Below, piece by piece: positions 1 through 48,562 of a DNA stretch of 64,000 nt. Numbering within the stretch: the first letter of the stretch is position 1; each line of letters begins with the position of its first letter. Below the pieces are notes generated by a model. It did not search any database. It had not been told where the DNA came from and was given only the letters and a program-made list of their open reading frames with translations. The DNA comes from Eubacteriales bacterium (GTDB lineage: Bacteria > Bacillota > Clostridia > Oscillospirales > CAG-382), in NCBI GenBank assembly GCA_045636285.1, contig JAZTXJ010000093.1, forward strand, positions 1,127 to 65,126, given 5' to 3'. A program made the position numbers and the translations under genes.

Positions 1-1374
1 CCGACAATCCAGAACAATTTCGAGCTCCCGCCGTACCGTCTGTTCGGTAACCGCGATGCTTTTGATTGCCACGGTGCCGTAAACTTTATCAACCGATTAA
101 ACGCACGTTTTGCCGAATACGCCGCTAATAACCAGGGCTTTTATATCTGTGATATAAACTATGTGGCTTCCTGCTTCGGTTTGGATAAATGGTACGACGA
201 TCAGGCTTGGTATATGTATAAATACGCCTGCTCGCTCGAAGCGGTTCCCCACGTTGCATACAATCTTTCCCATATTATCAAATCGCTCTTCGGCAAAAAC
301 AAAAAGGTTCTTGCGCTCGATCTCGATAATACACTTTGGGGCGGCGTTGTAGGTGACGACGGAGTAGAAGGAATCGAAATAGGCGAAGAAACCGCAACCG
401 CAGAATGCTTCAAAGCGTTTCAGGAATACGTAAAGAAGCAAAAGAGTATCGGTATTATGCTCACGGTTGCTTCTAAAAACGATCACGAAAACGCTATTGC
501 GGGATTAAATCACCCCGACGGTGTCCTTCGCCCCGATGATTTTATAGTTATCAAAGCAAATTGGGAAACAAAGGACAGAAACCTCGCCGCAACCGCTTCG
601 GAAATGGATCTCGGAGTAGATTCGTTCGTATTTGCGGACGATAATCCTACCGAACGCGCGTTGGTCGAACGAAGCATCAAAGGCATTGCAGTTCCTTTAA
701 TGGATAACCCCTCTGACTATATTCGCACGATTGACAGAAACGGTTATTTCGAAGTAACCAACTTCTCTTCCGACGACCTTAAGAGAAACGAAATGTATAA
801 AGCCAACGTCAAACGCGCCGAAATGTCGACCGAATTCACAGACTATAACGAATATCTGTTAAGTCTTGATATGAAAGCCGAAATCAAGCCGTTTGCGCCG
901 GTTTATATGCAGCGTATAACTCAGCTCACAAACAAGTCAAACCAATTCAATCTTACCACAAAGCGCTACACACAGCAGGAAATCGAATCCGCTGTCGAAG
1001 ACGGAAAGCATATAACGCTCTACGGAAAGCTTGCCGATATGTTCGGTGATAACGGTGTAGTATCGGTGGTTATAGGCGAAATCAAAGACGACGTATGCGA
1101 TATCGAATTGTGGCTTATGAGCTGCCGCGTTCTTAAAAAGAATATAGAATACGCAATGCTCGATACACTTGTTTCGGAATGCAAGGCCCGCGGATTAAGC
1201 AAGATTATCGGTCACTATTACCCCACCGCAAAGAACGGAATGGTTAAAAATCTATTCGCCGATTTCGGATTTGAAAAGGTTTTAGAAGCCGAAGACGGAA
1301 CAACCGAATGGATCCTTTCTACCGAAAACTATGAAAATAAAAACAACGTTATAAAAGTAAACACGGAGGAATAA
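1..1374 (+). CDS. FkbH-like HAD-superfamily (subfamily IIIC) protein, 5' end cut by the window edge
   Basis: Frame 1 is open from nt 1, and the listed start at 163 is an internal GTG, so the gene begins upstream of the window. HAD motif I 'LDLDNTLWGGVVGDDG' and a later 'FADDNP' are present. An acyl carrier protein gene follows after a 1-nt gap, which is the typical FkbH-ACP arrangement. Confidence 0.75.
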   Translation, partial: PTIQNNFELPPYRLFGNRDAFDCHGAVNFINRLNARFAEYAANNQGFYICDINYVASCFGLDKWYDDQAWYMYKYACSLEAVPHVAYNLSHIIKSLFGKNKKVLALDLDNTLWGGVVGDDGVEGIEIGEETATAECFKAFQEYVKKQKSIGIMLTVASKNDHENAIAGLNHPDGVLRPDDFIVIKANWETKDRNLAATASEMDLGVDSFVFADDNPTERALVERSIKGIAVPLMDNPSDYIRTIDRNGYFEVTNFSSDDLKRNEMYKANVKRAEMSTEFTDYNEYLLSLDMKAEIKPFAPVYMQRITQLTNKSNQFNLTTKRYTQQEIESAVEDGKHITLYGKLADMFGDNGVVSVVIGEIKDDVCDIELWLMSCRVLKKNIEYAMLDTLVSECKARGLSKIIGHYYPTAKNGMVKNLFADFGFEKVLEAEDGTTEWILSTENYENKNNVIKVNTEE

Positions 1375-11974: not shown

Positions 11975-13168
11975 TTATGCAGTATAGTTATCAAAATAAC
12001 CCTGAATCCAAACGATAGGCGTGCCCTTATCGCCACTGCCGGAGGTAAGGTCGCACAGCGAACCGATAAGGTCGGTAAGTCTGCGAGGAGTAGTACCCTG
12101 AGAAACCATCTGACCTACAAGATCGCCGTCCTTCTTGCGAATATATTCGCTGATTGCATCCTTCAATTCTTTACCCGAAAGATGTTTAAAGTCATTATCG
12201 GCAAGATACTTAAGCTTAACTTCGTTGGGCTGACCTTCAAGGCCTTTGGTATAAGCGGGAGAAACAACAGGGTCTGCAAGCTCCCAAATCTTTCCTACGG
12301 GATCCTTGAACGCACCGTCGCCGTATACCATCACTTCGACGTTTTTGCCGGTCTTTTCGAGAAGAGTGTTTGCAATGCTGTCTACAACAGACTGACATTC
12401 ACGAGGGAAAAGCTTAACGGTATCTTCGGTAGCCTTGTTACTGCCGAGCAAACCATAATTTTCGTTATAACCGGAACCGTTAACGGAAGCGGTAAGAATT
12501 TCATCAAGACCGAAAACGCGCTTTGCGCCTGCAGCTTTAAGCAAACGCTTGCTGCGTACGCGGGTGTGAATATCGCAGGTAAGAACACAGTCGGTATAAT
12601 CGAGAACCTTGCGGCAATCGTTAGCAAGAATGATTTCTGCTTCGCAACCCTGAGATTCGATAAGATTGCGGTAGTATTCAATATAATCAACACCGGTGAA
12701 GGGATGCTTTACAATACCGAAAAGCTCACGGTACTTAGCTTCGGTAAGTACGTCGGTCCAGGGATTAACGCCTGCAGCATCAAGCGAATCGAAATCGATA
12801 AGATGATTACCGACTTCATCGGAAGGATAAGAAAGCATAAGAACGATCTTCTTTGCACCGCGTGCAATACCCTTAAGGCAAATTGCAAAACGGTTACGCG
12901 AAAGTATAGGGAAAATTACGCCGAAGGTTCCTTCGGGGAATTTATTTCTGATATCTTCAGCAATGTGATCCACAGAAGCATAGTTACCCTGAGCACGAGC
13001 AACAACCGCTTCGGTTACGGCAACAACGTCACGATCTCTGATTTCGATATTTTCGCTTTCTGCAGCGGCAAGAACGCTTTCTGCAACGATAGCGGCAATA
13101 TCATCGCCCTGACGGATAATAGGTGCTCTAACACCGCGTGAAACTGTGCCAATAAGTCTTTCATCCAT
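11975..13168 (-). CDS. CofE / F420-0:gamma-glutamyl ligase-family protein (function unknown here)
   Basis: N-terminus 'GVRAPIIRQGDDIAAIVAESV...IRDRDVVAVTEAVVARAQGN' resembles the CofE-family fold. At 397 aa it is longer than canonical CofE. GGAGG RBS. Confidence 0.5.
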   Translation of the reverse strand: MDERLIGTVSRGVRAPIIRQGDDIAAIVAESVLAAAESENIEIRDRDVVAVTEAVVARAQGNYASVDHIAEDIRNKFPEGTFGVIFPILSRNRFAICLKGIARGAKKIVLMLSYPSDEVGNHLIDFDSLDAAGVNPWTDVLTEAKYRELFGIVKHPFTGVDYIEYYRNLIESQGCEAEIILANDCRKVLDYTDCVLTCDIHTRVRSKRLLKAAGAKRVFGLDEILTASVNGSGYNENYGLLGSNKATEDTVKLFPRECQSVVDSIANTLLEKTGKNVEVMVYGDGAFKDPVGKIWELADPVVSPAYTKGLEGQPNEVKLKYLADNDFKHLSGKELKDAISEYIRKKDGDLVGQMVSQGTTPRRLTDLIGSLCDLTSGSGDKGTPIVWIQGYFDNYTA

Positions 13169-13275: not shown

Positions 13276-14166
13276 ATGAATGTCAAGCTCGAACAATACA
13301 AAGTGTTTTATACTGCCGCGATATGCGGAAGCTTTTCCGAAGCGGCGAAGCAATTATTTATAACACAAAGTGCAGTAAGCCAGCAAATCCGTTCGCTCGA
13401 AGAAGAACTAGGTGTAACCTTGTTCGCCCGCGGACGAAAGGGTGCAAAGCTTACCGCCTATGGCGAACTTCTGTTTAGCTATGCACGACGCTCTATCGAA
13501 GAAATAGAAAACGCAGAAAGCCTGTTTTCGAGAATGAAGACGCTTGATGAAGGAAGCCTTCGCATTGGCGCGGGCGATACTATTACAAGGCATTTTCTGC
13601 TCAATAAGCTTGCGCGATTCCATAGCACATACCCCGGTATAAAAATAGAAATCGTGAACAGAGTTACAGAAGAAACCTTATCACGTTTGTATGCAGGTAA
13701 AGTCGATATAGCCTTTATTTCACTTCCGATTGACAGCTCGAAATACAACGGCATAACAATACGCAAAACAGGAACTCTGCACGATATTTTTATTGCAGGC
13801 GATAAATACGCACACCTTAAAGACGAAAAGCTCACCATGAAACAGATATCCGAGCTTCCTTTGGTTATGCTCGAGCCCAAATCCAACACGCGTAAAACCA
13901 CCGATGAATATTTTTCGAAATTCGGAATAAAGCTTAACCCTGAATTTGAATTGGGTTCTCACGATCTTCTTGTAGATTTCGCGAGCAAAAATCTCGGTAT
14001 AGCTTGTATTACCGAGGAATTTTCGGGTGATCTGACAAACTGCAACGTATTTAGGCTGAATACCGATTTCTCGCTTCCCGAACGAAGCATCGGTATCTGT
14101 ACTCTCGACAGCGTTTCCCCGCCGCCTACGGTAATAAAGCTTATCGAAATGATAAATATTGAATAA
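13276..14166 (+). CDS. LysR-family transcriptional regulator
   Basis: 'LEQYKVFYTAAICGSFSEAAKQLFITQSAVSQQIRSLEEELGVTLF' is the LysR wHTH. 296 aa with a substrate-binding domain. Confidence 0.92.
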   Translation: MNVKLEQYKVFYTAAICGSFSEAAKQLFITQSAVSQQIRSLEEELGVTLFARGRKGAKLTAYGELLFSYARRSIEEIENAESLFSRMKTLDEGSLRIGAGDTITRHFLLNKLARFHSTYPGIKIEIVNRVTEETLSRLYAGKVDIAFISLPIDSSKYNGITIRKTGTLHDIFIAGDKYAHLKDEKLTMKQISELPLVMLEPKSNTRKTTDEYFSKFGIKLNPEFELGSHDLLVDFASKNLGIACITEEFSGDLTNCNVFRLNTDFSLPERSIGICTLDSVSPPPTVIKLIEMINIE

Positions 14167-14169
14167 CAT

Positions 14170-14202
14170 AATCAAAGAGCGCACGTTGTGCGCTCTTTGA
14201 TT
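14170..14202. terminator. Strong 15-bp hairpin between convergent genes
   Basis: AATCAAAGAGCGCAC pairs with GTGCGCTCTTTGATT. There is no clean external T-run, so terminator function is inferred. Confidence 0.55.
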
Positions 14203-14304
14203 AAAGGGGTTGGGGTATATTATGATTCATCACCGAAAGGGGGACGGTGATGCGAAGCAATCGTTTCTTCCCTACCATTATACTCCCTTCCCTTAAATAA
14301 ATCT

Positions 14305-37169: not shown

Positions 37170-37455
37170 GCCAAAACAAAAACGCCCTGACAGAATATTC
37201 TGCCAAGGACGAATAATTACTTATCCGCGGTGCCACCTTGAATTCACGGAAACCCGTGCACTTTTGGGATACAAATATATCCACGGCAACTAACGCGTGC
37301 CTTGCGTTGCAGAATACTTTGCGTATAACGCATTTCCTTGCACCCTCCGCGGTCCATTTGCCAAACTGTTTCTTGCCCGATTTTCAGCATCGCGGGCTCT
37401 CTGTAAAGGCGTGTTTTGGCTTTATCTCCGCTTCAACGGTTTAAACTATTAACTT
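37170..37455 (-). promoter_or_regulatory. T-box riboswitch leader, Trp specifier
   Basis: On the minus strand: AG-bay 'CAGAGAG', distal 'GCUGAAAA', candidate specifier 'AAAUGGACC' (UGG followed by a purine), T-box 'AAUUCAAGGUGGCACCGCGG', terminator 'CGUCCUUGGCAGAAUAUUCUGUCAGGGCGUUUUUGUUUU'. The bulge UGGC predicts discriminator G73, as in bacterial tRNA-Trp. Confidence 0.85.
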
Positions 37456-38727: not shown

Positions 38728-38765
38728 GAAAAAATCCTATGCAGATACGCATAGGATTTTTATTT
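38728..38765. terminator. Bidirectional intrinsic terminator
   Basis: AAAATCCTATGC...GCATAGGATTTT flanked by an A-run and a T-run. Confidence 0.85.
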
Positions 38766-39256
38766 TAACCGTTAAGCACGCGTGAGCCTCTTTCGAGCGC
38801 GACAACGCCCGTACGGCACATTTCGACAATTCCCATCGGCTTCATTACTTCTATAAAGGCTTTGATTTTCGAAGGCTCGCCCGTAACCTCGACACAGATC
38901 GATTCTGTCGTATAATCGATTATTTTTGCGCGGTATATTTCGGTCGCCGCCATTATTTCCTGTCTGTTTTCGGTTGTGTTCTTAACCTTTACCAAAAGAA
39001 GCTCGCGTTCGACGGAAGCGTTCGAATCTAAAAGCTTTACCTTTTTTACGTTATAAAGCTTTGTAAGCTGTTTGATAAGCTGCTCGCGAGCATAGTCGTC
39101 ACCATTTAAGGTGATTGTTATTCTTGAGTAATCGGGATCATCGGTTTCGCCAACGGTCAGAGAATCGATATTAAATCCTTTTCTCATAAAAAGTCCCGAA
39201 ACGCGCGAAAGAACACCGTATTTATTTTCTACGTAAACTGCGATTACACTTCTCAT
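38765..39256 (-). CDS. ilvN: Acetolactate synthase small (regulatory) subunit
   Basis: 'VIAVYVENKYGVLSRVSGLFMRKGFNIDSLTVGETDDPDYSRITI' (ACT domain). The start is ATG 39256, 5 nt after the ilvB stop; the ORF-track start at 39331 overlaps ilvB. Confidence 0.9.
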   Translation of the reverse strand: MRSVIAVYVENKYGVLSRVSGLFMRKGFNIDSLTVGETDDPDYSRITITLNGDDYAREQLIKQLTKLYNVKKVKLLDSNASVERELLLVKVKNTTENRQEIMAATEIYRAKIIDYTTESICVEVTGEPSKIKAFIEVMKPMGIVEMCRTGVVALERGSRVLNG

Positions 39257-39260
39257 TAAT

Positions 39261-40961
39261 TTATCCCTTCGTTTTTGTAATAATATTATCCACAGTACCG
39301 CCCGGCGGAAGCATAGGAAGCACAAGCTCATCCATATTTATCGCCACGTCTATCAAAAACGGACCGTTGTGGGAATAGGCTTCTTTAAAAGCATTTTCGA
39401 ATTCTTCGATATTTTCCGCGCGTAAAGCCTTCGCGCCAAAAGCCTCTGCAAGCTTCACAAAATCGGTTTTTCTTTCGAGCACGGTATTACTGTATCTTTT
39501 TTCATAAAACAGCGTTTGCCATTGCCTTACCATACCGAGAACGCCGTTGTTCATAAGAACGATAACAATATCAGAGTTATAAGTAACCGCTGTTGCAAGC
39601 TCGTTAAGATTCATACCGAAGCTTCCGTCGCCCGTAATAAGAACGGTTTTATCGTTCGAAGCAATATTGGCACCGATAGCCGCACCAAGTCCGTATCCCA
39701 TAGTGCCCAAACCGCCCGAAGAAGCAAATCTTCGCTTGCTTTCGAAATTCGCAAACTGCGCTGTCCACATCTGATGCTGACCTACGTCGGTAACGATTAT
39801 ATCGCGCTTACTTTTTTGAGCATTGATGACATCAAATATCTTTTGGGGTGTCATCGTATCCTCGGAACGCTTTTCGCTTTCTTCGGATATACGCTTCCCT
39901 TCGGATTTGAACCTTTCGACTTCATCTCTCCATACAGGATGCTCTTTCTTTTCGACCGCATTAAGTATTCTTCCGAACGAATCCTTAATATCTCCGATCA
40001 AGCCGATATCCACGCTTACGTTTTTATTGATTTCGGATACGTCTATATCGAGCTGAATGATTTTCGCATTCGGTGAATATTTGGAAACGTCGCCTGTCGC
40101 ACGGTCGGAAAAACGTACACCCACGCCAATAATCAAATCGGCCGCACGGTTCGCAACCGACGAGGCATACTGTCCGTGCATACCCTGCATTCCCAAAAAT
40201 CGTTCATAAGAATTCGGCATTGCCGAAAGTCCCATCAGAGAACAGCCTATATACGCGTCAATCTTTTCGGCAAGAGCCATGATTTCCTTTGTCATTCCCT
40301 CGCCCGCGGCGCCGCCGCCGATATAAATATAAGGGCGTTCGGATTGATTTATCAGCTTCACAGCCTGCTCGATCTGCAAATCAGAAACCGTATCGGTTTT
40401 AAAGGGTTCTACAATACCCTGCGGTACAAAAGCACATTCTGCGTCCTGAACGTCTTTGGGAATATCGATAAGTACGGGACCGGGTCTGCCTGATTTTGCG
40501 ATTCTGAATGCTTCACGAATAGTATCTGCAAGCTCGGTTACCTCTGTAACAAAGAAATTATGCTTCGTTATCGGAAGAGTTACGCCCGTAATATCTATTT
40601 CCTGAAAGCTGTCTTTACCGATAAGATTAGTCGGAACGTTGCCCGTTATGGCAATCATCGGAACGGAATCGAGCATAGCGGTCGCCAAGCCCGTAACAAG
40701 ATTAGTCGCACCGGGACCCGAGGTTGCAATAACAACGCCAACCTTGCCTGTAACGCGCGAATAGCCGTCTGCCGCATGCGCCGCCCCCTGCTCGTGTGCA
40801 GTGAGGTAGTGATTGATTCTGTCGTTTGCTTTATAGAGTTCATCGTAAAGGCTTAAAACCTGACCTCCGGGATAGCCGAAAACATCCGAAACACCCTGCT
40901 CTATAAGGGTTTCGATAATTATTCGTGCTCCCGTGAGGATATTTTTAGCAGACTTTCTCAT
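39261..40961 (-). CDS. ilvB: Acetolactate synthase large subunit (ThDP-dependent)
   Basis: 'GARIIIETLIEQGVSDVFGYPGG', 'GPGATNLVTG', 'GLGTMGYGLGAAIGA...ITGDGSFGMN'. The start is ATG 40961 (GGAGG RBS); the ORF-track start at 41054 runs through the T-box terminator. Confidence 0.93.
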   Translation of the reverse strand: MRKSAKNILTGARIIIETLIEQGVSDVFGYPGGQVLSLYDELYKANDRINHYLTAHEQGAAHAADGYSRVTGKVGVVIATSGPGATNLVTGLATAMLDSVPMIAITGNVPTNLIGKDSFQEIDITGVTLPITKHNFFVTEVTELADTIREAFRIAKSGRPGPVLIDIPKDVQDAECAFVPQGIVEPFKTDTVSDLQIEQAVKLINQSERPYIYIGGGAAGEGMTKEIMALAEKIDAYIGCSLMGLSAMPNSYERFLGMQGMHGQYASSVANRAADLIIGVGVRFSDRATGDVSKYSPNAKIIQLDIDVSEINKNVSVDIGLIGDIKDSFGRILNAVEKKEHPVWRDEVERFKSEGKRISEESEKRSEDTMTPQKIFDVINAQKSKRDIIVTDVGQHQMWTAQFANFESKRRFASSGGLGTMGYGLGAAIGANIASNDKTVLITGDGSFGMNLNELATAVTYNSDIVIVLMNNGVLGMVRQWQTLFYEKRYSNTVLERKTDFVKLAEAFGAKALRAENIEEFENAFKEAYSHNGPFLIDVAINMDELVLPMLPPGGTVDNIITKTKG

Positions 40962-40974
40962 TTGAACCTCCATA

Positions 40975-41235
40975 CAATAAAAAAACACTTTCATCTCTTT
41001 TAAAGAGACGAAAGTGTTATTACAATACTTCCGCGGTACCACTCTTTTTCGCAATAATGCGCACTCCGATGCTTAAACATCATACTCTGTAACGGGAGCA
41101 CCCGTCTGTAACTAATCTCTTTCGATTTCATCACAGCCGCTCAACGGCGACTTCGGCAAACAATACGTTATGTCTCGCACCAACCGACAATTCTCTGAAA
41201 CGATTAATTTGCTTACTATTCCGCATCACTGCGTT
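40975..41235 (-). promoter_or_regulatory. T-box riboswitch leader of ilvBN (branched-chain specifier; candidate GUC, Val)
   Basis: On the minus strand: K-turn 'UGAUG...AGUA', AG-bay 'CAGAGAA', 'GGUGCGAGA', 'GAAGUCG' specifier candidate, T-box 'GAGUGGUACCGCGG', terminator 'AACACUUUCGUCUCUUUAAAAGAGAUGAAAGUGUUUUUU'. The bulge UGGU predicts discriminator A73. Confidence 0.85.
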
Positions 41236-41241
41236 TTTAAT

Positions 41242-41270
41242 ATAGTATCATCACGGCATTATTTTGTCAA
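41242..41270 (-). promoter_or_regulatory. Sigma-70 promoter for the ilvBN leader
   Basis: On the minus strand: TTGACA, 17 nt, TACTAT. Confidence 0.65.
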
Positions 41271-41292
41271 GTATTTAAATAAATTTATGCTA

Positions 41293-42906
41293 TTATAAGT
41301 CGTTTCCGAGCGAAAGACTGTATATCCATTCGATTTTATCTCCCGCCTTGACTATATATTCACCGCAGCTCACAGAGGGCTTTTCTCCGTTAACCAAATA
41401 CTGCCAGCCCGAAAGATCGCCGTGATCAAATTCATAAACGTTGGCAATACCCTCAACGTATACCGACGAACCCGAACCGTTTGTTTCCAAATGAATCGCA
41501 TTTGCGGCTGTTATTTCAGAAAGCACTTCGTAAACCGAATCGCCTTCAGAAATATTGCATACGGTTTCTTTAAGTATTACCCCGTTTGGAATTTCGGAAT
41601 TATCGATAACGTCACAAACTATCGAAATAGTAACCGTACCGATATAATCGTCTTCCGAAGCCGCGTTTTCGTAATAGCCTTCTTTCGTTTCGAAATCAGT
41701 TAAAAGCACAAAAGCCAATACCGCGACGATAATTACCGCCAACAGTAAAATATTTTTTGCGTTAATCTTCTTTTTAATCAGCAAAGCAATAAACGCACAT
41801 ACCGAAACAAGCGCTATAATTATAATCGCATATACCTTATAGCTAAGGTTATCTTTTTCATCGTTATGCTCGGATTTACTTGCTTCGTTGCTTGTGCTTG
41901 TATGCTCGTCCTGCGAAGGCTCGCTTTCCTCGGGAGCAGAAACAGAATCGCTTACGTTTTTATCAAACGTATAGAGCGGACCCTTTCCCTGCTTCATTTG
42001 CATATATGCAACCGAAGCAAAAAACACCTGAACGGTAGCATTTGAATTTGTTGTTCCGCCGAATATATGACTGAATCCGCCATCCTCGTTTCTGTAACGC
42101 GAAATTACGTCAAAGAGATCGCACTCATTTTTAATAAAGCGTTCATCCTCTTTGCAATCGATTCCTAACGCAGAAAGCGCCACAATAACCTGTGCTGCGC
42201 TTTCGGGGTTGTTAATGCCGTAGCTCATAAATTCTCCGTTTTCGTCCTGACGGCTCGCAAGGAGCTTCACAGCACGATCGACAGACAATTTTACTTTTTC
42301 GGTTACGTTATAAAACGGAGCAAACGATTGAATCACCATTGCGGTTACATCTACGTCTGCGTTTTTTCCGTTTAATGCCCAGCCGCCGTCATCCAACTGC
42401 ATCGAAAGAATTTTATCAATAAGGGTATTCGGGGTGTGCTTCTCAGATTCCGCTCCGTTGTTGAGTATATGTAATCCGTAAACAAGACTCATAATGCCCT
42501 GCTCGCCTATCGACTTTTCGGTTTGTTCGGCAATGTATTCATCGTCACTGCCAATCGCTACCAATGCCAGAGCATATTTCAATCGCGTAGATGCAGAATT
42601 GGTTTCGTTATTTCGCAGATATTCAAGCAATGCATTCTCGTAGCTTGAAAAATCGTAATTTCCCGTTTGCGATAATGCAATAACGTACCATTCCGAAGAA
42701 ATACCCGCTTTTTCTGTCAACGCTTCATCGATAAAACCTTGAATGCTTTTTTCTTGCAACGGTTTATAGTTATATTCAAGAACAGCGTCAATCAAATCCT
42801 GCGGTTCGCTTATTTCTTCATTTCCCAAGACCGTTACCGTTGTTAAGCAAACAAACAACAAGCTTAAGAACGCGGAGAAAATACGAAACGTTAATTTATC
42901 TTTCAT
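41293..42906 (-). CDS. Surface protein: prenyltransferase/terpene-cyclase-like alpha/alpha-toroid domain, two TM helices, then a C-terminal DUF4430 domain
   Basis: Signal peptide. Repeats 'QLDDGGWAL', 'RQDENGEFMSYG', 'RNEDGGFSH'. S/E-rich linker. TMs 'VYAIIIIALVSVCAFIALLI' and 'ILLLAVIIVAVLAFVLL'. C-terminus 'YEFDHGDLSGWQYLVNGEKPSVSCGEYIVKAGDKIEWIY' (DUF4430-type). Confidence 0.75.
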   Translation of the reverse strand: MKDKLTFRIFSAFLSLLFVCLTTVTVLGNEEISEPQDLIDAVLEYNYKPLQEKSIQGFIDEALTEKAGISSEWYVIALSQTGNYDFSSYENALLEYLRNNETNSASTRLKYALALVAIGSDDEYIAEQTEKSIGEQGIMSLVYGLHILNNGAESEKHTPNTLIDKILSMQLDDGGWALNGKNADVDVTAMVIQSFAPFYNVTEKVKLSVDRAVKLLASRQDENGEFMSYGINNPESAAQVIVALSALGIDCKEDERFIKNECDLFDVISRYRNEDGGFSHIFGGTTNSNATVQVFFASVAYMQMKQGKGPLYTFDKNVSDSVSAPEESEPSQDEHTSTSNEASKSEHNDEKDNLSYKVYAIIIIALVSVCAFIALLIKKKINAKNILLLAVIIVAVLAFVLLTDFETKEGYYENAASEDDYIGTVTISIVCDVIDNSEIPNGVILKETVCNISEGDSVYEVLSEITAANAIHLETNGSGSSVYVEGIANVYEFDHGDLSGWQYLVNGEKPSVSCGEYIVKAGDKIEWIYSLSLGNDL

Positions 42907-43717
42907 AAATACCTTTACCGATTACAAAAACAGTTATTAAGGAAGCAAGTGCAATGATTATAAACACAAAAACGTTTGAAGTATCACCCGGTTCGGGTAT
43001 TTCGTTAACGTTACCATCATTTTCTGCTTCGGAAACGCTGAAAATGCATACAGGAGGAACTATAATCGTTTCTTCGGTAACTGCGCTTACAACATACCTG
43101 CCGCCCGATTCAAGCGATATAGACACTTTTCCGTCTTTATCTGTAATATAATCGTTTTTTTCTCCGTTTATAGTTATAGCCGCGTCCTTCAAGGGCAAGG
43201 TGATAGAATTCCACGATTCATCAAAGCCCGCAACGGATAACGTTAAGGTTATCGATTCGTTTTCCTTTGCATCTACTTTGTTGACATCGAAAAACGAATA
43301 GGAATCCGACCAGCCGAGCGTATCGGTATATACAAAAGCAGAAACGAGATCGCCGCTCTTAACGGGATCTGCAAGACTCCACGCAGAAGCATTATTGATA
43401 TAATAGCCATAACTGCCCGAGGTGTCGCCCCAAAGCTTTACGATAGAAACACCGAATTCGCTTTCAGCAGAAGCATATCCGCTTTCTGCTCCGCCTTTAT
43501 AGAATGCATCGTGTGCCGCCACGAGCGTATCGTTTATTGTAAGAGCTCCGTCATCATCGATATCGGTAACGGTAACCTTTTCATAAGTTACTGCAAGAGC
43601 GCCCTTATCGGATATATTTACATATACCTCTGCTTTTAATTCTTCTGCGCTTGCGACAGTAACGCACGTCGAAAATACTATAATTAGACAGATTAATATA
43701 TAAGTGATTTTTTTCAT
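42896..43717 (-). CDS. DUF4430-domain surface protein with an Ig-like domain and a C-terminal TM anchor
   Basis: Signal peptide 'ILICLIIVFSTCVTVASA'. 'GVSIVKLWGDTSGSYGYYINNASAWSLADPVKSGDLVSAFVY' (DUF4430-type). 'DKDGKVSISLESGGRYVVSA' beta-sandwich. TM plus 'GKGIYER'. Confidence 0.7.
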   Translation of the reverse strand: MKKITYILICLIIVFSTCVTVASAEELKAEVYVNISDKGALAVTYEKVTVTDIDDDGALTINDTLVAAHDAFYKGGAESGYASAESEFGVSIVKLWGDTSGSYGYYINNASAWSLADPVKSGDLVSAFVYTDTLGWSDSYSFFDVNKVDAKENESITLTLSVAGFDESWNSITLPLKDAAITINGEKNDYITDKDGKVSISLESGGRYVVSAVTEETIIVPPVCIFSVSEAENDGNVNEIPEPGDTSNVFVFIIIALASLITVFVIGKGIYER

Positions 43718-44427
43718 TGTTTTTTCCTTTCAAATTGTTGTACGGCAAACAAGCCGTATTTCTTCTTGATTCTTAAAAGTTTGTTTCCAAACGGTTTTGC
43801 AAGCAAGAACACAAAAACAACGTTAGAGACCGCATATTCAACCGTAGTAGGCAACGCGGCAATAACGGTTGCGATATATCGCGTAAGATTAAAAGTATTT
43901 TCCGCCCAAACCGTCGCCCAGACGTCCATCGTCAAGGAATATAAAATTCCCGAAAGTCCTGCATAAACGCATAGTACGATTCTGTTTTTACGCAAAAATA
44001 CACCAAATGCACCCGCCGTAAATCCGATTAATCCCCAAGCAAACATCTGGAACGGAGTCCACGGACCCTGCCCGAAGTAGAAATTGGAAATCACGGCAGA
44101 AACGGCGCCAACCGCAAACCCCGCTTCTTTTCCCAACCATACAGCCGATATTACGGTTATTGCGGTTATCGGCTTAAAGCCGGGTAACCACGCAAAAACA
44201 AATCTGCCCAATACAGACAAAGCGATCAGAACCGCCAACACGGTAAGCTCTGAAGAGGTTACGTCTTTTCTGTCAAATGCATAAAACAGCGGTACACAGG
44301 CAAGTAACGCAACGCAAAGCGAGATCCACAAATAATACTTCTCTTTAAAAAGCACAGCGCCGAAATATACCGTAAGCGGAATAGCAACAAGCAAAATGAG
44401 CAGTGTTATTATACTTTTGTGCTTCAT
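43714..44427 (-). CDS. ECF transporter substrate-specific (S) component
   Basis: 237 aa with about 6 TM helices. It sits directly between the EcfA and DUF4430 genes with 1-4 nt overlaps. Corrinoid specificity is inferred only from the riboswitch. Confidence 0.7.
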   Translation of the reverse strand: MKHKSIITLLILLVAIPLTVYFGAVLFKEKYYLWISLCVALLACVPLFYAFDRKDVTSSELTVLAVLIALSVLGRFVFAWLPGFKPITAITVISAVWLGKEAGFAVGAVSAVISNFYFGQGPWTPFQMFAWGLIGFTAGAFGVFLRKNRIVLCVYAGLSGILYSLTMDVWATVWAENTFNLTRYIATVIAALPTTVEYAVSNVVFVFLLAKPFGNKLLRIKKKYGLFAVQQFERKKQ

Positions 44428-46106
44428 TATTGCTCACCTACCCGTGCGTTCAATCTGCACATTTCCGCCACGTGCTCACAAAGAAAGGTATTTTTGTAAT
44501 AACCGCGCGCTATTCGGTTTGCGGCAGTGGTGTAGAAGCTGTTGTCCGAAAAGAATCTCGACGTAATATCCGAAGAAACGATCTGTCCGTCAAAGAACAA
44601 GCTGCATTTATCCGAAGTCGTAGCAGAAAATTCCACGTCGTGCGTTACCGTGATAACCGTAACGCCCTCATCGTTTAAGGTCTTTATTATTTCGCCCAGA
44701 ACCATTTTTCCGGTTGCATCGATCCCCTTTGTAGGCTCGTCGAGCAACAAAATTTTCGGATCTGCAAGCAATACCTTCGCAAGCGCCGCCTTTTGCTGTT
44801 CGCCTCCGCTCAGATCGTAAGGGTGATTATCGAGAAGATGCGAAATCGAAAGCTTATGCGAAATTGCTTTTATTCTTTCTTCGGTTTCTTCCTTTGAATA
44901 TTTCAAGGTTTTGCAAATTTCAGCAAGGTCTTCCTTCACGGTCATTTCAACAAAAACCGTCTGGGGATCCTGCGGAAGAAAAGCAACGTTTTTCACGTAC
45001 AAAGAACCGTTCTTATAATCCGAAATCGTTTTTTTGTTTATATAAACTTTTCCTCTGTACGGTTTTAAAAGACCTGCAATAATATTCAGGGTTGTCGTTT
45101 TGCCGGTACCGTTACCACCCAAAATACAGTGGTGCTCACCTTTATTGATCTTTACCGAAACGCCCTTTACAACGTCATCGGATTCACGCTCATAACGGAA
45201 ATATACGTTTTCCAGCTCAACGGCAATTTCACTTTCAAATTCAGAAAGCGAATGGACGAATATGCCCTTCTTGTTTGCATAGTTAGTTCTTATAAATTCG
45301 CGTCCGTCGCGCACGGTTATAGGCGCTTTTCCTTTTCCGCCGAGCATTTCGAATATTCTCATTGCGGCAGGAAGTGAATTCTTTATAGGATGATTAGCTT
45401 TATCCGCAAAAAAATCTGTAACGGTATTCGGTGTGCCGTTAAAGGCTATACCGCCTTGCTCCATAATCAACACGCGGTCGCAAATCGGAAAAACCTCTTC
45501 CAAACGATGCTCGATAAGCAAAACGGTTATACCGAGCTCTCTGTTCAACTTCTGCAACGTTGCGATAAAGTTTGAAGCGGCTATCGGATCGAGCTGTGCG
45601 GTAGGTTCATCGAGCATAAGTATTTTGGGTTGCATAACCATAACCGATGCAAGATTAAGAAGCTGCTTTTCACCGCCCGAAAGCTCGCTCGTTTTTTTAT
45701 AAAACCAATCCTGAATGCCGAAATAGCTTGCCATTTCAGCCGTTTTTCTTCGAATTTCCTGCGTTTCAAGCCCAAGACTTTCGAGCCCGAACGCAAGCTC
45801 GTGCCAAACAAGATCGGTAACTATCTGGCTTTCGGGATTTTGCAAAACGAAGCCGATCTCCGAAGCAGATTGACGGTTGTCGATTTCATTTCGAGGAATG
45901 CCTCTATAAATAATCGAACCGTCAATTTCTCCGTAGGGCGCCGTTTCGCGCTTCAAAAGCTTCAGCAGTGTAGATTTTCCGCAACCGGATTCGCCGCAAA
46001 GAACCACGAATTCGCCTTCTTTTACGCTAAACGAAACGTCTTTTACTGCATACACAGAAGATTCGTTATATCGAAAACTTAAATTTTCGACCTGTAATAT
46101 TTCCAT
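44427..46106 (-). CDS. ecfA: Fused tandem ECF/ABC ATPase (EcfA-EcfA')
   Basis: Two Walker A sites ('GESGCGKST', 'GGNGTGKTT'), two signatures ('LSGGEKQ', 'LSGGEQQ') and two Walker B sites ('MLDEPT', 'LLDEPT'). Confidence 0.92.
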   Translation of the reverse strand: MEILQVENLSFRYNESSVYAVKDVSFSVKEGEFVVLCGESGCGKSTLLKLLKRETAPYGEIDGSIIYRGIPRNEIDNRQSASEIGFVLQNPESQIVTDLVWHELAFGLESLGLETQEIRRKTAEMASYFGIQDWFYKKTSELSGGEKQLLNLASVMVMQPKILMLDEPTAQLDPIAASNFIATLQKLNRELGITVLLIEHRLEEVFPICDRVLIMEQGGIAFNGTPNTVTDFFADKANHPIKNSLPAAMRIFEMLGGKGKAPITVRDGREFIRTNYANKKGIFVHSLSEFESEIAVELENVYFRYERESDDVVKGVSVKINKGEHHCILGGNGTGKTTTLNIIAGLLKPYRGKVYINKKTISDYKNGSLYVKNVAFLPQDPQTVFVEMTVKEDLAEICKTLKYSKEETEERIKAISHKLSISHLLDNHPYDLSGGEQQKAALAKVLLADPKILLLDEPTKGIDATGKMVLGEIIKTLNDEGVTVITVTHDVEFSATTSDKCSLFFDGQIVSSDITSRFFSDNSFYTTAANRIARGYYKNTFLCEHVAEMCRLNARVGEQ

Positions 46107-46957
46107 TGCAGATCCTCCTTTAACTCAATAATCAACGGCATAAAGCAAAGTAAACCGAAGCCGATAAAAGCGATTATCGCCACAATATCCGCTTTTTGTG
46201 CTTTTATCGCGGGATAGTACGAAAATGCGAGCTTTTCGCTGAACATTCCATAAAAAACCAGAGCGTCTAAAAGAACTATCATAACAAGCATCGCAAAATC
46301 TCTTGCTTTGAAACGAAACAAAGAAAAATGCGTTCTTCCCTTTAATCCGTAACCGCGGCTTTTCATAGAAGTACCCGTATCTATCGCATTTTCAAGCGCC
46401 CAGCCAATCAGCGACGAATACGTTCTCATAGTGCTTTTAATCTTGTCGGTATATGCATCAGACGAATACATACCCATTGCTTTTTGCGAAGCCTTTATCC
46501 TGCCATAACGTTCCTTTAGCAACGGAACGAATCTGAGTGCAGACGATATAAGCAACGCAAATTTAGGCGAAAATTCTCCGAACAGGCAAAGTAATTTATC
46601 CTCGGTCATAATAATGCCGAAGCATTTAAACCAATATATTACCGAAATTACCATCAATGCTATCCCTAACCCATATAAAAACGCTTCAAGGGTTATAGGG
46701 TTTCTGTTCACAAAGAAAAGAACGGTTACCCCTTTATGCGAAAAGAAGGGATTTATTATTGCCACAAGCATCAGCATAAATAAATATACCGAAAATTCCT
46801 TAATGAATTTCGCTTTGTTGATTTTGAGAAAATAAGCCATTGCACCGACAAACGAAATCAAATGCAATATAGGGTTTTGAGAAAACATCGAAACGACAAG
46901 CACAGAGGCGAAATAAACCGCCGCTGTTATTGGGTGAAATGTACCGAAGCTTATCAT
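46079..46957 (-). CDS. ecfT: ECF transporter transmembrane (T) component (CbiQ family)
   Basis: Polytopic, about 292 aa. 'RALRFVPLL'-type coupling-helix region ('SSALRFVPLLKERYGRIKASQKAMG'). The start is ATG 46957, overlapping the stop of the upstream small ORF (ATGA). Confidence 0.85.
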   Translation of the reverse strand: MISFGTFHPITAAVYFASVLVVSMFSQNPILHLISFVGAMAYFLKINKAKFIKEFSVYLFMLMLVAIINPFFSHKGVTVLFFVNRNPITLEAFLYGLGIALMVISVIYWFKCFGIIMTEDKLLCLFGEFSPKFALLISSALRFVPLLKERYGRIKASQKAMGMYSSDAYTDKIKSTMRTYSSLIGWALENAIDTGTSMKSRGYGLKGRTHFSLFRFKARDFAMLVMIVLLDALVFYGMFSEKLAFSYYPAIKAQKADIVAIIAFIGFGLLCFMPLIIELKEDLQWKYYRSKI

Positions 46958-47169
46958 TTTCTTTTCCTCTTTCGATTTTTGGATGTTTCTGTTTTCGTGC
47001 TCTCTTTCAAGCCTGCAGACTCTAACGCTCTCGGCCACGGACCGAGAAACGCCTTAATGCGAGATCTTGTGACTTCATCGAAGTCGTCTTTTTTCGGTAA
47101 CCTATCAACCTCCCTATGCTTTTGTATGAGCAATTCTATTGCCCACTGCTTTTTCTCATCGGGTGTCAT
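46954..47169 (-). CDS. Small basic protein (71 aa) with one homing-endonuclease-associated-repeat-like motif
   Basis: GGAGG RBS 8 nt before ATG 47169. 'LPKKDDFDEVTRSRIKAFLGPWPRALESAGLKE' resembles the HNH-associated repeat (...FGSWneALeaAGL). K/R-rich tail. The stop overlaps the ecfT start. Confidence 0.55.
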   Translation of the reverse strand: MTPDEKKQWAIELLIQKHREVDRLPKKDDFDEVTRSRIKAFLGPWPRALESAGLKESTKTETSKNRKRKRK

Positions 47170-47261
47170 CAGCCATACCTCCGAAATTTAATAAATAAAA
47201 TACCCTTTAACCATACCGGTCAAAGAGTACAACAGATTTACCGCGCAACGAAAAATGTGTG

Positions 47262-47515
47262 CAAAACAAAAAGAGTGCATACACCGAGCAATGATAAATC
47301 GGTTGCACTCTTCACACCAAAGTTGTGTTAAACCTACGGAAAAATTCCAAAAAGACACGGCAGGTATCCTGACTTATGATGAAGCGGCAAATGCCGCAAA
47401 AGAACGCGCCTTCTCGGTATTAACCAATGGCACAATACGTCCTTTATCTTGTCAAATACAGTAATGGCGGTTGTTCCGGATTCGAACCGGATTCCCTTTT
47501 ACATCTACTCAGCGT
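47262..47515 (-). promoter_or_regulatory. Cobalamin (B12) riboswitch with a terminator expression platform
   Basis: On the minus strand: 'AAAAGGGAAUCCGGUUCGAAUCCGGAACAACCGCCAUUACUGUA', 'GUGCCAUUGGUUAAUACCGAGAAGGCGC', B12 box 'AAGUCAGGAUACCUGCC', then the hairpin 'GAAGAGUGCA...UGCACUCUUUUUGUUUU'. Confidence 0.85.
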
Positions 47516-47560
47516 ACAACTTTTCAAACCGTATCTTCTTAATCGGTATTTAATTTTAAG

Positions 47561-47591
47561 TGATTATAACATACTATTTTGTATTTTTCAA
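47561..47591 (-). promoter_or_regulatory. Sigma-70 promoter of the riboswitch/ECF operon
   Basis: On the minus strand: TTGAAA, 17 nt, TATAAT. Confidence 0.7.
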
Positions 47592-47611
47592 TACAATTAT
47601 CGATTTTGTCG

Positions 47612-48562
47612 CTATGCCTTCTGAATTTCTTTTTGAGTAAGCTTTACAAATTCGGTTATGGCGTTGTCGTATTTATTCGTATCGACAAACCTCAACTGCG
47701 AGTGTGCGCCGTGCTCGAACCAAACAAGCGATTTTTCGCTGTTGCATTTATCAAACAGAATCTGCGCAGTTTCGGGCAACGAATAAAGATCTTCTTTGCT
47801 GTGGATCATAAGCAGCGGCTTTTCCAACCGTTCGATAATATCGATCGGGCCGTACTTCATGGTTACGCCTATTTCCTTGCGTACCAAACGCTCTACCAGC
47901 TGAAGACAAGGAAACACAGGCTTTTTCAGCGCAATCATATGGTTTTTAAAGCTTTCGTAAAAGTTCGGGTACATACCCTCCGCAGTCATTCCCGAAAAAT
48001 AATCGGGACATTGAGGGTTTGTAAGAGCGAACATAGCGCACGAAGAACCGATACAAATTCCGTGAAGCCATATTTGCTTTACGCCGAATTGTTCGTGTAA
48101 CATTCTGCCCCAAGCAAGAATATCCTTGTGCTCATTAAAGCCGATAGAATTGTATTTTCCGTCGCTTTTGCCGTGAGCACGTTGGTCGATTGTCAAAATA
48201 TTGTATCCGCTTTTTGCATACGCTTCTGCGAAATAGTAGCCGTAGTTCAAGGCTTCGGTTCTGCCGGGTATTATAATCACGGCTTTGTCGTAGCCCAAAT
48301 CGGTGTATTCACCAAAAAGCTTATATCCCTCGTTTTCGAGCGTTAACTCCTTAATATCGGTTAATTGAGCGCGGTATTCGAGCGCAGATTCATACATGGA
48401 GCACTGTATCGGCTCGTTCACCGAACAGCTTCTGTCCCATTTTTTCTTGCTCGTGCGGTTAAGATGAATATTGAACAGAATACGCGCAACGATAAAAAAC
48501 GACCATACCGTAAATATTAAAATTGCCGCAATGCAGAGAAGCAAAATGTATTCAAGTTTCAA
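47612..48562 (-). CDS. Membrane-anchored alpha/beta-fold hydrolase with a Cys in the nucleophile elbow
   Basis: N-terminal TM. 'IIIPGRTE' (oxyanion region), elbow 'LHGICIGSS' (G-x-C-x-G), 'IHSKEDLY' (Asp), 'EHGAHS' (His). The preferred start is TTG 48562 (GAGGT RBS 7 nt upstream, 1 nt after the plsC-like stop); ATG 48595 is the alternative. Confidence 0.75.
   Translation of the reverse strand: MKLEYILLLCIAAILIFTVWSFFIVARILFNIHLNRTSKKKWDRSCSVNEPIQCSMYESALEYRAQLTDIKELTLENEGYKLFGEYTDLGYDKAVIIIPGRTEALNYGYYFAEAYAKSGYNILTIDQRAHGKSDGKYNSIGFNEHKDILAWGRMLHEQFGVKQIWLHGICIGSSCAMFALTNPQCPDYFSGMTAEGMYPNFYESFKNHMIALKKPVFPCLQLVERLVRKEIGVTMKYGPIDIIERLEKPLLMIHSKEDLYSLPETAQILFDKCNSEKSLVWFEHGAHSQLRFVDTNKYDNAITEFVKLTQKEIQKA

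Follow-up and report, generated by a model that had tools for sequence, protein, structure and literature searches.

The window (the whole 64,000-nucleotide stretch of DNA analysed here, from a gut bacterium of the Clostridia) carries a six-gene minus-strand operon that is, in our judgement, quite probably a corrinoid scavenging and import system, shut off when B12 is sufficient. The genes stand behind a cobalamin riboswitch and encode a small HNH_repeat protein (p71), the three parts of an ECF importer and two extracytoplasmic proteins, p273 and p537, the second of which resembles animal transcobalamin in fold. When B12 is scarce, the importer and the two extracytoplasmic proteins would be made together. 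p537 and p273 would then capture scarce extracellular corrinoids and either concentrate them near the S-component or pass the ligand on to this protein, and the S-component would carry it across the membrane. We favor this reading because the S-component is CbrT-like, p537 is transcobalamin-like, the accessory and importer genes co-occur across genomes, and the accessory pair has a riboswitch of its own in eight loci. All of the computational evidence, from sequences and from models, supports the initial annotation in its proposal of a surface corrinoid-capture module feeding an ECF importer. The capture-and-import idea itself is not new, having been predicted from independent comparative genomics by Burroughs et al. 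2007 (PMC1796856).

Table 1. Features of the operon and its leader, in order of transcription. Nucleotide positions are those of the window; residue ranges refer to the protein named.
Feature	Position	Strand	Description	Support
Promoter	47563..47591	(-)	sigma-70-type, TTGAAA-17-TATAAT, TG before the -10 hexamer	11/12 matches
Cobalamin riboswitch aptamer	47342..47548	(-)	long form with peripheral extension	RF00174
Expression platform	47262..47312	(-)	terminator-like hairpin 47312-47271 (approx.), then UUUGUUUUG	fold + sequence
Second hairpin	47190..47230	(-)	hairpin and U/A-rich tail TTTATTTATT	14-pair stem at 47230-47200
p71	46954..47169	(-)	71 aa, cytoplasmic, HNH_repeat core, K/R-rich tail, first cistron	PF18780
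EcfT	46079..46957	(-)	292 aa, CbiQ family	PF02361, 37.1 bits
EcfA-EcfA'	44427..46106	(-)	559 aa, fused ATPase, two ABC domains	ABC_tran twice, 217 bits
S-component	43714..44427	(-)	237 aa, CbrT-like	PF07155 37.1 bits, PF12822 31.5 bits
p273	42896..43717	(-)	273 aa, secreted surface protein	model pLDDT 86
p273 signal peptide	N-terminus			
p273 N-domain	residues ~28-143		beta-grasp-like fold, invariant DxDxDG loop	
p273 second domain	residues ~147-229		Ig/CarboxypepD_reg-like	
p273 tail	C-terminus		sorting-signal-like: IPEPGD, hydrophobic stretch, K/R	
p537	41293..42906	(-)	537 aa, transcobalamin-like	DUF4430 66.8 bits + structure matches
p537 N-terminus	start of chain		signal peptide or N-terminal anchor	
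p537 toroid	residues ~34-305		alpha/alpha toroid	
p537 linker	residues 317-353		acidic, disordered	
p537 TM hairpin	helices 356-377 + 383-402		KKKINAK between the helices	model + hydropathy
p537 beta-domain	residues ~420-530		DUF4430/SLBB	

A riboswitch-controlled leader and six overlapping genes

Transcription would start from the promoter at 47591-47563, which is present as described in the initial annotation, with a TG extension in addition. It was the top-scoring candidate within 41000-47700 (11/12). Since the total count of promoter-like sites in the region was not above chance, its position is the main argument for it. The riboswitch proposed downstream was recovered in a covariance-model search with RF00174, scoring 85.0 bits (E 1.6e-19; gathering score 31.5 bits) over full model positions 1-189, and the four motifs quoted earlier can all be read in the sequence. 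In related loci, homologous aptamers occupy the same position.

The terminator hairpin that had been claimed was found in the MFE fold and the centroid fold alike (leader RNA fold z = −3.99), and a second hairpin immediately precedes the GGAGG ribosome-binding site of p71. With the first hairpin and its U-tract at 47312-47262 and the second hairpin at 47230-47200, the expression platform should be capable of switching, as judged from the predicted fold. OFF-switch logic is typical of cobalamin riboswitches. By the logic of this class, a cobalamin-bound aptamer would favor the terminator hairpin and leave the six genes untranscribed. In the predicted fold of the leader, sequence 3' of the aptamer is base-paired to the segment that includes the ribosome-binding site, and such pairing might also exert translational control.

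Successive genes overlap by 4, 28, 1, 4 and 11 nt, figures that assume an EcfT start at the ATG at 46957 (292 aa) and not at the GTG at 47038; with this start, the six overlapping ORFs (1-28 nt) reported before hold. The ATG overlaps the stop codon of p71 (ATGA), and homologues agree with both this start and the resulting length of 292 aa. The first ORF, previously listed as a 71-aa basic protein, exists as such and can be given a more specific identity, that of a PF18780 HNH_repeat protein (36.9 bits; cut-off 26). Its family is very conserved, with 24 invariant residues, and we found 1544 related clusters. Relatives of p71 head an ECF and DUF4430 operon in all six of the six contexts looked up, and p71 is a constant, cytoplasmic first cistron of the putative corrinoid system.

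A group I ECF importer with a CbrT-like S-component

The assignments of EcfT, a fused EcfA-A' and an S-component all stood above model cut-offs. EcfT clears CbiQ (PF02361; cut-off 25 bits), the ATPase scored 372.5 bits against TIGR04520 (cut-off 315) and 347.4 bits against TIGR04521 (cut-off 330), and the S-component exceeds the cut-offs of both PF07155 (cut-off 26.7) and PF12822. EcfT, two EcfA-type ABC domains and an S-component in one operon make this a group I (dedicated) ECF transporter.

The closest solved structure, and the only significant one, was CbrT (6FNP_A; E 9.7e-9, 38.5 bits), which aligns over 167 residues (59-225 of the S-component against 10-177), whereas other S-components gave E >= 1. 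The sequence similarity is modest, and we therefore call this protein a probable member of the CbrT family of B12-specific S-components. ECF-CbrT of Lactobacillus delbrueckii (6FNP; Santos et al. 2018, PMC5997447) transports cobalamin and cobinamide; it is likewise an ECF-type ABC importer, and a B12-related genomic context is common to both systems. In contrast to the window operon, it belongs to group II: CbrT relies on an ECF module of general use, and no surface binding proteins accompany it. The operon described here brings its own EcfT and fused EcfA-A', two surface proteins and p71, and its S-component is extended at the N-terminus by about 55 residues, in which hydropathy predicts two hydrophobic helices.

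A CbiMNQO-type transporter for cobalt or nickel would carry some of the same labels, as Pfam and NCBIfam call EcfT ‘CbiQ’ and, at lower rank, the ATPase ‘cobalt transporter ATP-binding’. Such transporters too commonly sit behind cobalamin riboswitches, and C. difficile offers an example of a cobalt ECF system in this position (PMC11477304). We nevertheless consider metal import extremely unlikely: the operon contains neither CbiM nor CbiN, EcfT reached only 33.8 bits against the CbiQ equivalog TIGR02454 (cut-off 111.8), the S-component is CbrT-like, and there is no evident reason for metal-ion uptake to involve transcobalamin-like proteins.

Two extracytoplasmic proteins, p537 and p273

The description of the 537-aa protein as a toroid joined to DUF4430 was upheld. 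Pfam DUF4430 matched residues 455-530 with 66.8 bits (gathering score 23.8), and the toroid barely cleared the thresholds for Prenyltrans (26.6 bits; cut-off 26.5) and SQHop_cyclase_C (26.3 bits; cut-off 26.1). When the AlphaFold model (pLDDT 82) was searched against the PDB with Foldseek, the top 15 matches were transcobalamin, intrinsic factor or haptocorrin (E 7e-8 to 3e-6), and all covered both domains (527-563 aligned columns). Sequence identity to these proteins was 11-13% and whole-chain TM-scores were moderate (0.48-0.56 on target), while the beta-domain by itself aligned to 5NO0 with a TM-score of 0.65. The domain orientation is unlike that of the ligand-bound crystal structures (rmsd 9-17 Å) and is uninformative in the model.

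A TM hairpin, absent from the initial annotation, links the toroid to the beta-domain; its helices were modeled at a pLDDT of about 90. Animal transcobalamin, intrinsic factor and haptocorrin, the best whole-chain matches, share the toroid and beta-grasp architecture but are soluble and have a short flexible linker, whereas the linker of p537 is about 110 residues long and comprises the acidic disordered stretch and the membrane hairpin. This hairpin, with a positively charged loop on the cytoplasmic side, would staple p537 to the membrane with the toroid and the DUF4430/SLBB domain both facing outward. Because the hairpin would tether it close to the membrane, p537 should lie beside the transporter. 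p537 may act as a bacterial transcobalamin that probably clamps its putative ligand between its two domains in the manner of transcobalamin.

For the 273-aa protein, the claimed DUF4430 identity did not survive. The Pfam model matched neither the window protein nor any of 42 full-length relatives (E <= 1), and none of 27 isolated N-domains (E <= 10); Pfam and PDB sequence searches with the N-domain likewise gave no match. When deep profiles were compared with hhalign, however, the N-domain aligned to DUF4430 over 95 columns with 87.6% probability (P 3.5e-6), against a maximum of 2.6% in 22 reversed and shuffled controls; with a shallow alignment no link was found. The order of secondary structure in the N-domain model fits SLBB (b1-b2-helix-hairpin-b3-b4-b5), and a whole-chain Foldseek search returned Ig-like matches only. 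We regard the N-domain as an unannotated family that, to go by profile similarity, appears remotely DUF4430-like. Relatives of p273 fall into 1100 representative clusters, and a p273-type domain is fused with toroid and DUF4430 in one polypeptide in 12 representative proteins (e.g. P0305).

The TM anchor attributed to p273 corresponds to the hydrophobic stretch of what is probably a sorting signal of the sortase type at the C-terminus. The window copy ends in IPEPGD (without Thr), the hydrophobic stretch and GKGIYER. An xPxTG motif occurs at the C-terminus of 63 of 120 relatives, PF00746 matched 11 of 42, and some relatives have LPXTG or SLH anchors. A sortase-type or membrane tail would keep p273 at the surface, where an Ig-like stalk would present its divergent SLBB-like domain with the calcium-loop-like DxDxDG motif.

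Distribution and comparison with known systems

A relative of p537 occurs in at least 578 species genomes. In the best 80 loci, p273 occurs together with p537 in 76 and ECF genes are found in 62-68, and accessory and ECF genes co-occur in three different gene orders. Of the 73 loci with enough upstream DNA, 63 have a B12 riboswitch (RF00174 or RF01689) directly upstream, and none was detected in 9. In eight loci, p273-p537 and p71-EcfT-EcfAA-S are split into two units, and each unit has a riboswitch to itself.

The importer could also take up corrinoids while p273 and p537 serve some other surface role and do not feed it; they might sequester or store corrinoids against competitors, select or remodel cobamides, or act as receptors for something else, for instance a phage or a host B12 carrier. 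ECF S-components usually bind their substrate alone, with nanomolar affinity and without a binding protein (PMC5997447), the accessory pair is a separate transcription unit in the eight loci above, and surface display varies among relatives (LPXTG, SLH, dockerin/cohesin and very large multidomain proteins), all of which would suit such a role. We think it unlikely, given the very tight linkage to ECF genes across the three gene orders, the short overlaps between the genes, and the TM hairpin of p537 as a membrane-proximal tether.

Capture coupled to import is also what was proposed for systems of the same kind by Burroughs, Balaji, Iyer and Aravind 2007 (PMC1796856). The portions of that paper drawn on here describe secreted toroid+SLBB proteins, frequently accompanied by another extracellular SLBB protein that is a paralogue. 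Their genes share operons with genes of the CbiO/CbiQ type, for an ABC ATPase and a protein resembling CbiQ; Ig-like domain fusions and Gram-positive anchors are described as well, and B12 scavenging is proposed. The same portions do not mention riboswitch control, a CbrT-like S-component, the TM hairpin, the p71 gene or the subfamily with a DxDxDG loop, which the DUF4430 model misses.

The initial annotation likened the two surface proteins to BtuG and BtuH of Bacteroides. BtuG, BtuH, BtuJ and BtuK are also riboswitch-controlled surface proteins encoded beside B12 transporter genes, and have been proposed to capture cobamides extracellularly (reviewed in PMC13616437). They are, however, outer-membrane lipoproteins that feed a TonB-dependent transporter, and their folds differ (beta-propeller, novel globular domain and jellyroll). 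None of the six window proteins contains a seven-bladed beta-propeller (BtuG) or a BtuH B12-binding domain. Since the folds are unrelated, the analogy stands as a functional one only.

The same set of parts has been described for the Lactobacillus sakei lsa1836-1840 operon (Verplaetse et al., bioRxiv 10.1101/864751), which encodes an S-component, a fused EcfA-A', EcfT, and exported transcobalamin beta-like and alpha-like proteins. There the alpha and beta domains are two proteins, whereas in the window they form one chain with a TM hairpin, accompanied by p273. This homologous operon has been deleted and modeled with heme as the read-out, so that the accessory proteins are not entirely unstudied, contrary to the earlier statement; in the literature searched, we found no report of corrinoid binding by a purified bacterial transcobalamin-like protein of this kind.

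Verplaetse et al. assigned their operon to heme, and the window operon could by the same token import heme or another non-corrin tetrapyrrole, with the transcobalamin-like proteins as heme scavengers. Deletion of the L. sakei operon reduced the uptake of heme, in docking the heme lay between the two modeled proteins, and the S-component lacks the residues that its authors took as cobalamin-binding (bioRxiv 10.1101/864751). This evidence consists of a whole-operon deletion and docking, and the text of that paper nowhere contains the word ‘riboswitch’. In ECF-CbrT, moreover, hemin does not compete with B12 (PMC5997447). We hold heme import by the window operon to be very improbable, as this operon and most related loci are under cobalamin riboswitches, including the separate riboswitch of the accessory pair in eight of them.

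The operon leader and the importer

The operon (41293-47591, minus strand) opens with a promoter and a full-length cobalamin aptamer, which are listed in the table below with the other features of this part of the window. The cobalamin riboswitch claimed in the initial annotation was borne out by a match to RF00174 well above the gathering score, and the four motifs cited there can be read directly in the window sequence. The 172 nt that separate the aptamer from the first start codon fold better than shuffled sequence (z = −4.0) and contain two hairpins as well as a GGAGG ribosome-binding site. Then come six reading frames, with overlaps of 4, 28, 1, 4 and 11 nt when EcfT is started at ATG 46957; this start yields a protein of 292 aa that matches its homologues, in place of the upstream GTG returned by the ORF lister. 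The operon ends at 41293, and downstream of it ilvB/ilvN have a promoter-like site of their own and a T-box leader, the first of two T-box leaders in the window; the interval from the last gene to this leader showed no terminator.

Features of the operon and its downstream neighbours in the window
Feature	Position	Strand	Remarks
Promoter TTGAAA-17-TATAAT	47591-47563	-	11/12, TG extension; best sigma-70-type match in region
Cobalamin riboswitch aptamer, full-length	47548-47342	-	RF00174, 85.0 bits (gathering score 31.5), E 1.6e-19
Hairpin, then UUUGUUUUG	~47312-47271	-	within 172-nt leader stretch
Second hairpin, U/A-rich tail	47230-47200	-	within 172-nt leader stretch
p71 gene	46954-47169	-	71 aa
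S-component gene	43714-44427	-	237 aa
p273 gene	42896-43717	-	273 aa
p537 gene	41293-42906	-	537 aa
Promoter-like site of T-box leader	41270-41242		ahead of ilvB/ilvN
First T-box leader	41001-41238	-	127.6 bits; directly downstream of operon, ahead of ilvB/ilvN
ilvB/ilvN	39261-41054, 38765-39331
Second T-box leader	37202-37445	-	97.4 bits

Three of the six genes encode an ECF transporter. EcfT matched CbiQ in Pfam, the fused 559-aa ATPase (EcfA-A′) contains two ABC domains and scored above the curated cut-offs of both ECF ATPase equivalogs, and the 237-aa protein matched two ECF S-component families, both above cut-offs. A cobalt transporter was considered and rejected, the CbiQ equivalog scoring 33.8 on EcfT (cut-off 111.8) and CbiM and CbiN being absent.

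Among PDB sequences, the S-component had 6FNP chain A as its sole significant match (E = 9.7e-9, residues 59-225 on 10-177), with the next-best S-component at E = 1. From its length of 182 residues and its ‘membrane protein’ label, we infer that chain A is CbrT. The 6FNP complex is ECF-CbrT of Lactobacillus delbrueckii, an ATP-dependent importer of cobalamin and cobinamide in which hemin does not compete (PMC5997447). ECF-CbrT borrows a shared ECF module, whereas the window system has a dedicated operon. In addition, the window S-component carries about 55 extra N-terminal residues (1-55), forming two hydrophobic helices, that are absent from CbrT of 6FNP; relatives’ matches to the window protein span ~180-235 of its 237 residues.

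The surface proteins and the first cistron

For p537, the last product of the operon, Pfam assigned DUF4430 to residues 455-530 (66.8 bits) and alpha/alpha-toroid families, barely at threshold, to residues 142-297. An AlphaFold model made with 40 homologues had a mean pLDDT of 82, rising above 90 through the toroid. In a Foldseek search of the PDB, the best 15 matches were all transcobalamin, intrinsic factor or haptocorrin (E = 7e-8 to 3e-6), in alignments of 527-563 columns that covered both domains; terpene cyclases and prenyltransferases ranked after them and matched the toroid only. The C-terminal domain compared with the isolated human transcobalamin beta-domain at a TM score of 0.65. 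Because identity to these carriers is low (11-13%) and the domains are oriented differently (rmsd 9-17 Å), the model supports the architecture and not a ligand-bound geometry. In the interdomain region, an acidic disordered stretch (317-353) is followed by hydrophobic helices at 356-377 and 383-402 (pLDDT ~90) with KKKINAK between them, and this transmembrane hairpin is conserved in the p537 family. By the positive-inside rule, the KKKINAK loop would be cytoplasmic and both domains extracellular, so that p537, as modeled, would in effect be a transcobalamin with a membrane staple for its interdomain linker.

The second surface protein, p273, had also been described as a DUF4430 protein, a description that did not hold: no DUF4430 match was found in p273 or 42 relatives (E ≤ 1), nor in 27 isolated N-domains of its family searched with the Pfam model (E ≤ 10). 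Searches of PDB sequences with phmmer and hmmsearch, profiles included, gave no match. The p273 model (pLDDT 86) has two domains, of which the second, an Ig/CarboxypepD_reg-like sandwich, was alone behind all whole-chain Foldseek matches, making that search uninformative on the N-domain. In the model, the N-domain (~28-143) runs strand, strand, helix, hairpin, three strands, the order given for the transcobalamin-like SLBB clade in PMC1796856. This domain forms a family of its own, without a Pfam model, that comprises ~1100 representative clusters in an exhaustive search and occurs singly, in tandem or within very large surface proteins. With shallow alignments (Neff 2.3), hhalign found no signal between the N-domain and DUF4430. 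When the alignment was deepened with sequences from the exhaustive search of representatives, hhalign matched the whole N-domain to the DUF4430 domain of p537-family proteins (probability 87.6%, P = 3.5e-6, 95 columns); the controls, comprising a reversed template, 20 column-shuffled ones and two unrelated domains, did not exceed 2.6%. The profile comparison makes the N-domain a probable but unproven remote member of the SLBB superfamily.

After strand 2 of this domain, ahead of the helix, comes a D-x-D-x-D-G loop (p273 residues 52-57) that is invariant in the family alignment (A2) and now and then scores as an EF-hand; our guess from this pattern is a putative calcium site. In twelve representative proteins, the p273 N-domain and DUF4430 occur within a single polypeptide, of which at least one, P0305, has a toroid too, and these fusions support p273 and p537 acting together. 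As for the transmembrane anchor ascribed to p273, the hydrophobic C-terminal tail is present but resembles a sorting signal: the tail motif is IPEPGD in the window copy and xPxTG in 63 of 120 relatives, the LPXTG anchor model matched 11 of 42 relatives, and other relatives have SLH domains.

The first cistron encodes p71, which matched PF18780 (HNH_repeat) above cut-off and whose relatives form 1544 clusters, all of small proteins. Its core has 24 invariant positions across 28 sequences and ends in a variable K/R tail, and p71 surpasses all other operon products in conservation (identity 66-81% vs. 40-65%). In all six contexts looked up, p71 was the first gene of an operon with CbiQ, ABC, S-component and DUF4430 proteins, usually right behind a B12 riboswitch. 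No structure in the PDB, phage family in PHROGs or paper was informative on its role.

Linkage under B12 riboswitches and a proposed model of corrinoid capture

At least 578 loci with a p537 relative emerged from a pattern scan in which each species was represented by one genome. The best 80 of these belong to uncultured Clostridia (Acutalibacteraceae, Oscillospiraceae, Ruminococcus, Lachnospiraceae), mostly of herbivore guts. Among the 80, p273 stands beside p537 in 76, EcfT, EcfA-A′ and the S-component (T, AA and S) are found in 62-68, contig ends truncating many others, and p71 in 48. Complete loci most often have the order p71-p273-p537-T-AA-S (24 with p71, 15 without), followed by the window order, p71-T-AA-S-p273-p537 (7 with, 4 without), and a split order in which p273-p537 is followed by p71-T-AA-S (8 loci). 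One related locus (L081, GCA_045546795.1) shares synteny with the window across both flanks.

The riboswitch core was recovered by a strict regular expression in only 37 of the 80 loci. In 56 loci, an nhmmer profile of nine Rfam-verified aptamers matched immediately ahead of the first gene, the following gene being p71 (39 matches), p273 (21) or EcfT (3); about 19 matches were weak, and of three retested with Rfam, one lay above the gathering score and two just below. Seventeen loci had no nhmmer match. By Rfam, five of these carry RF01689 and two a divergent RF00174, all above gathering score, one has a sub-threshold match, and nine gave no B12 riboswitch match. In total, a B12 riboswitch precedes the gene set in 63 of the 73 loci having sufficient upstream DNA. 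Since RF01689 occurs in some loci and RF00174 in others, one gene set stands under two B12 riboswitch families.

Each of the eight split-order loci carries two riboswitches, placed ahead of p273-p537 and of p71-EcfT, respectively. It follows that the accessory pair has B12 regulation of its own, which is the strongest contextual argument that the pair handles corrinoids. The B12-sensing leader, the dedicated CbrT-type importer and the two surface proteins are repeatedly and tightly linked under B12 riboswitches. In such a system, B12 binding to the leader would terminate transcription; when B12 is scarce, the surface proteins would capture corrinoids, which would be held, as in transcobalamin, in a clamp formed by the toroid and beta-grasp domains of p537, and the ligand would pass to the S-component, which would topple and release it inside the cell, driven by ATP. 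A possibility is that the surface proteins sequester corrinoids instead of delivering them. The same scheme was drawn for heme in a study of the Lactobacillus sakei homologue, lsa1836-1840 (bioRxiv 10.1101/864751). Heme import is unlikely for the window operon, given the B12 riboswitches here and in related loci and the failure of hemin to compete in CbrT.

The capture-and-import reading of the initial annotation is sound but about 19 years old. Burroughs et al. (2007; PMC1796856) describe bacterial toroid-SLBB proteins that bear signal peptides and Gram-positive anchors, together with a second SLBB paralogue encoded in the operon and adjoining CbiO/CbiQ genes, note that carriers tend to lack B12 synthesis, and propose scavenging. 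This operon type is likely the bacterial source of the animal transcobalamin family (PMC1796856). The type of system is already known and predicted, and the window operon, ordinary in principle, adds no new principle; it is a clean, compact and fully riboswitch-gated example. The literature searched, which included few subscription journals and is weak evidence in this respect, yielded no corrinoid-binding measurement on these bacterial proteins, and no mention of the p537-type membrane hairpin, the p273 N-domain as a separate family, p71, or the split, doubly riboswitched arrangement. The hairpin, the unannotated N-domain family and the conserved p71 are the details worth testing. A 2026 review of the Bacteroides relay calls extracellular capture in Firmicutes entirely uncharacterised (PMC13616437). 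Found in at least several hundred Clostridia species of animal guts, this operon type is an obvious candidate for it, and such a common system bears on the competition of Gram-positive gut bacteria for B12.

ECF transporters by definition work without soluble binding proteins, a view that a surface binder feeding an S-component, if shown, would alter. We also consider, as a rather improbable extension, a three-part machine of membrane-stapled p537, a calcium-dependent SLBB-like p273 and an obligatory cytoplasmic p71. [quoted passage not shown] Such a machine, if real, would give ECF transporters their first example of dedicated extracellular substrate-binding partners, and would be the bacterial prototype of the animal B12 carriers.

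Variant loci in other genomes

The aptamers of split-order loci (L015, L018, L025, L031, L037, L050 and L069) are short forms of ~75-170 nt (e.g. 2311-2481 and 5184-5316 in L015) without the peripheral extension that the window aptamer has. The Ruminococcus-type loci L048, L059, L061, L063 and L064 carry AdoCbl-II (RF01689) and not RF00174 (e.g. L059, 2924-2999). A further variant (L083-L086; e.g. L086, 7286-14285) starts with p71 and a ~930-980-aa protein, which in L086 has a weak Prenyltrans match and Dockerin_1. There follow a cohesin-like protein of ~200-215 aa, a DUF4430 protein of ~366-385 aa, CbiQ and, last, a triple fusion EcfA-EcfA′-S of ~880 aa; in these species, cohesin-dockerin pairing may provide surface display. 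Directly downstream of the S-component gene in L053, group II intron domains were found at 12309-12598 (RF02001, 142 bits; RF01998, 50 bits). Finally, L030 has a further strong cobalamin-riboswitch match at 14085-14278 (152 bits with the nhmmer profile), ~1.3 kb downstream of the S-component gene, which presumably controls another B12-related unit.
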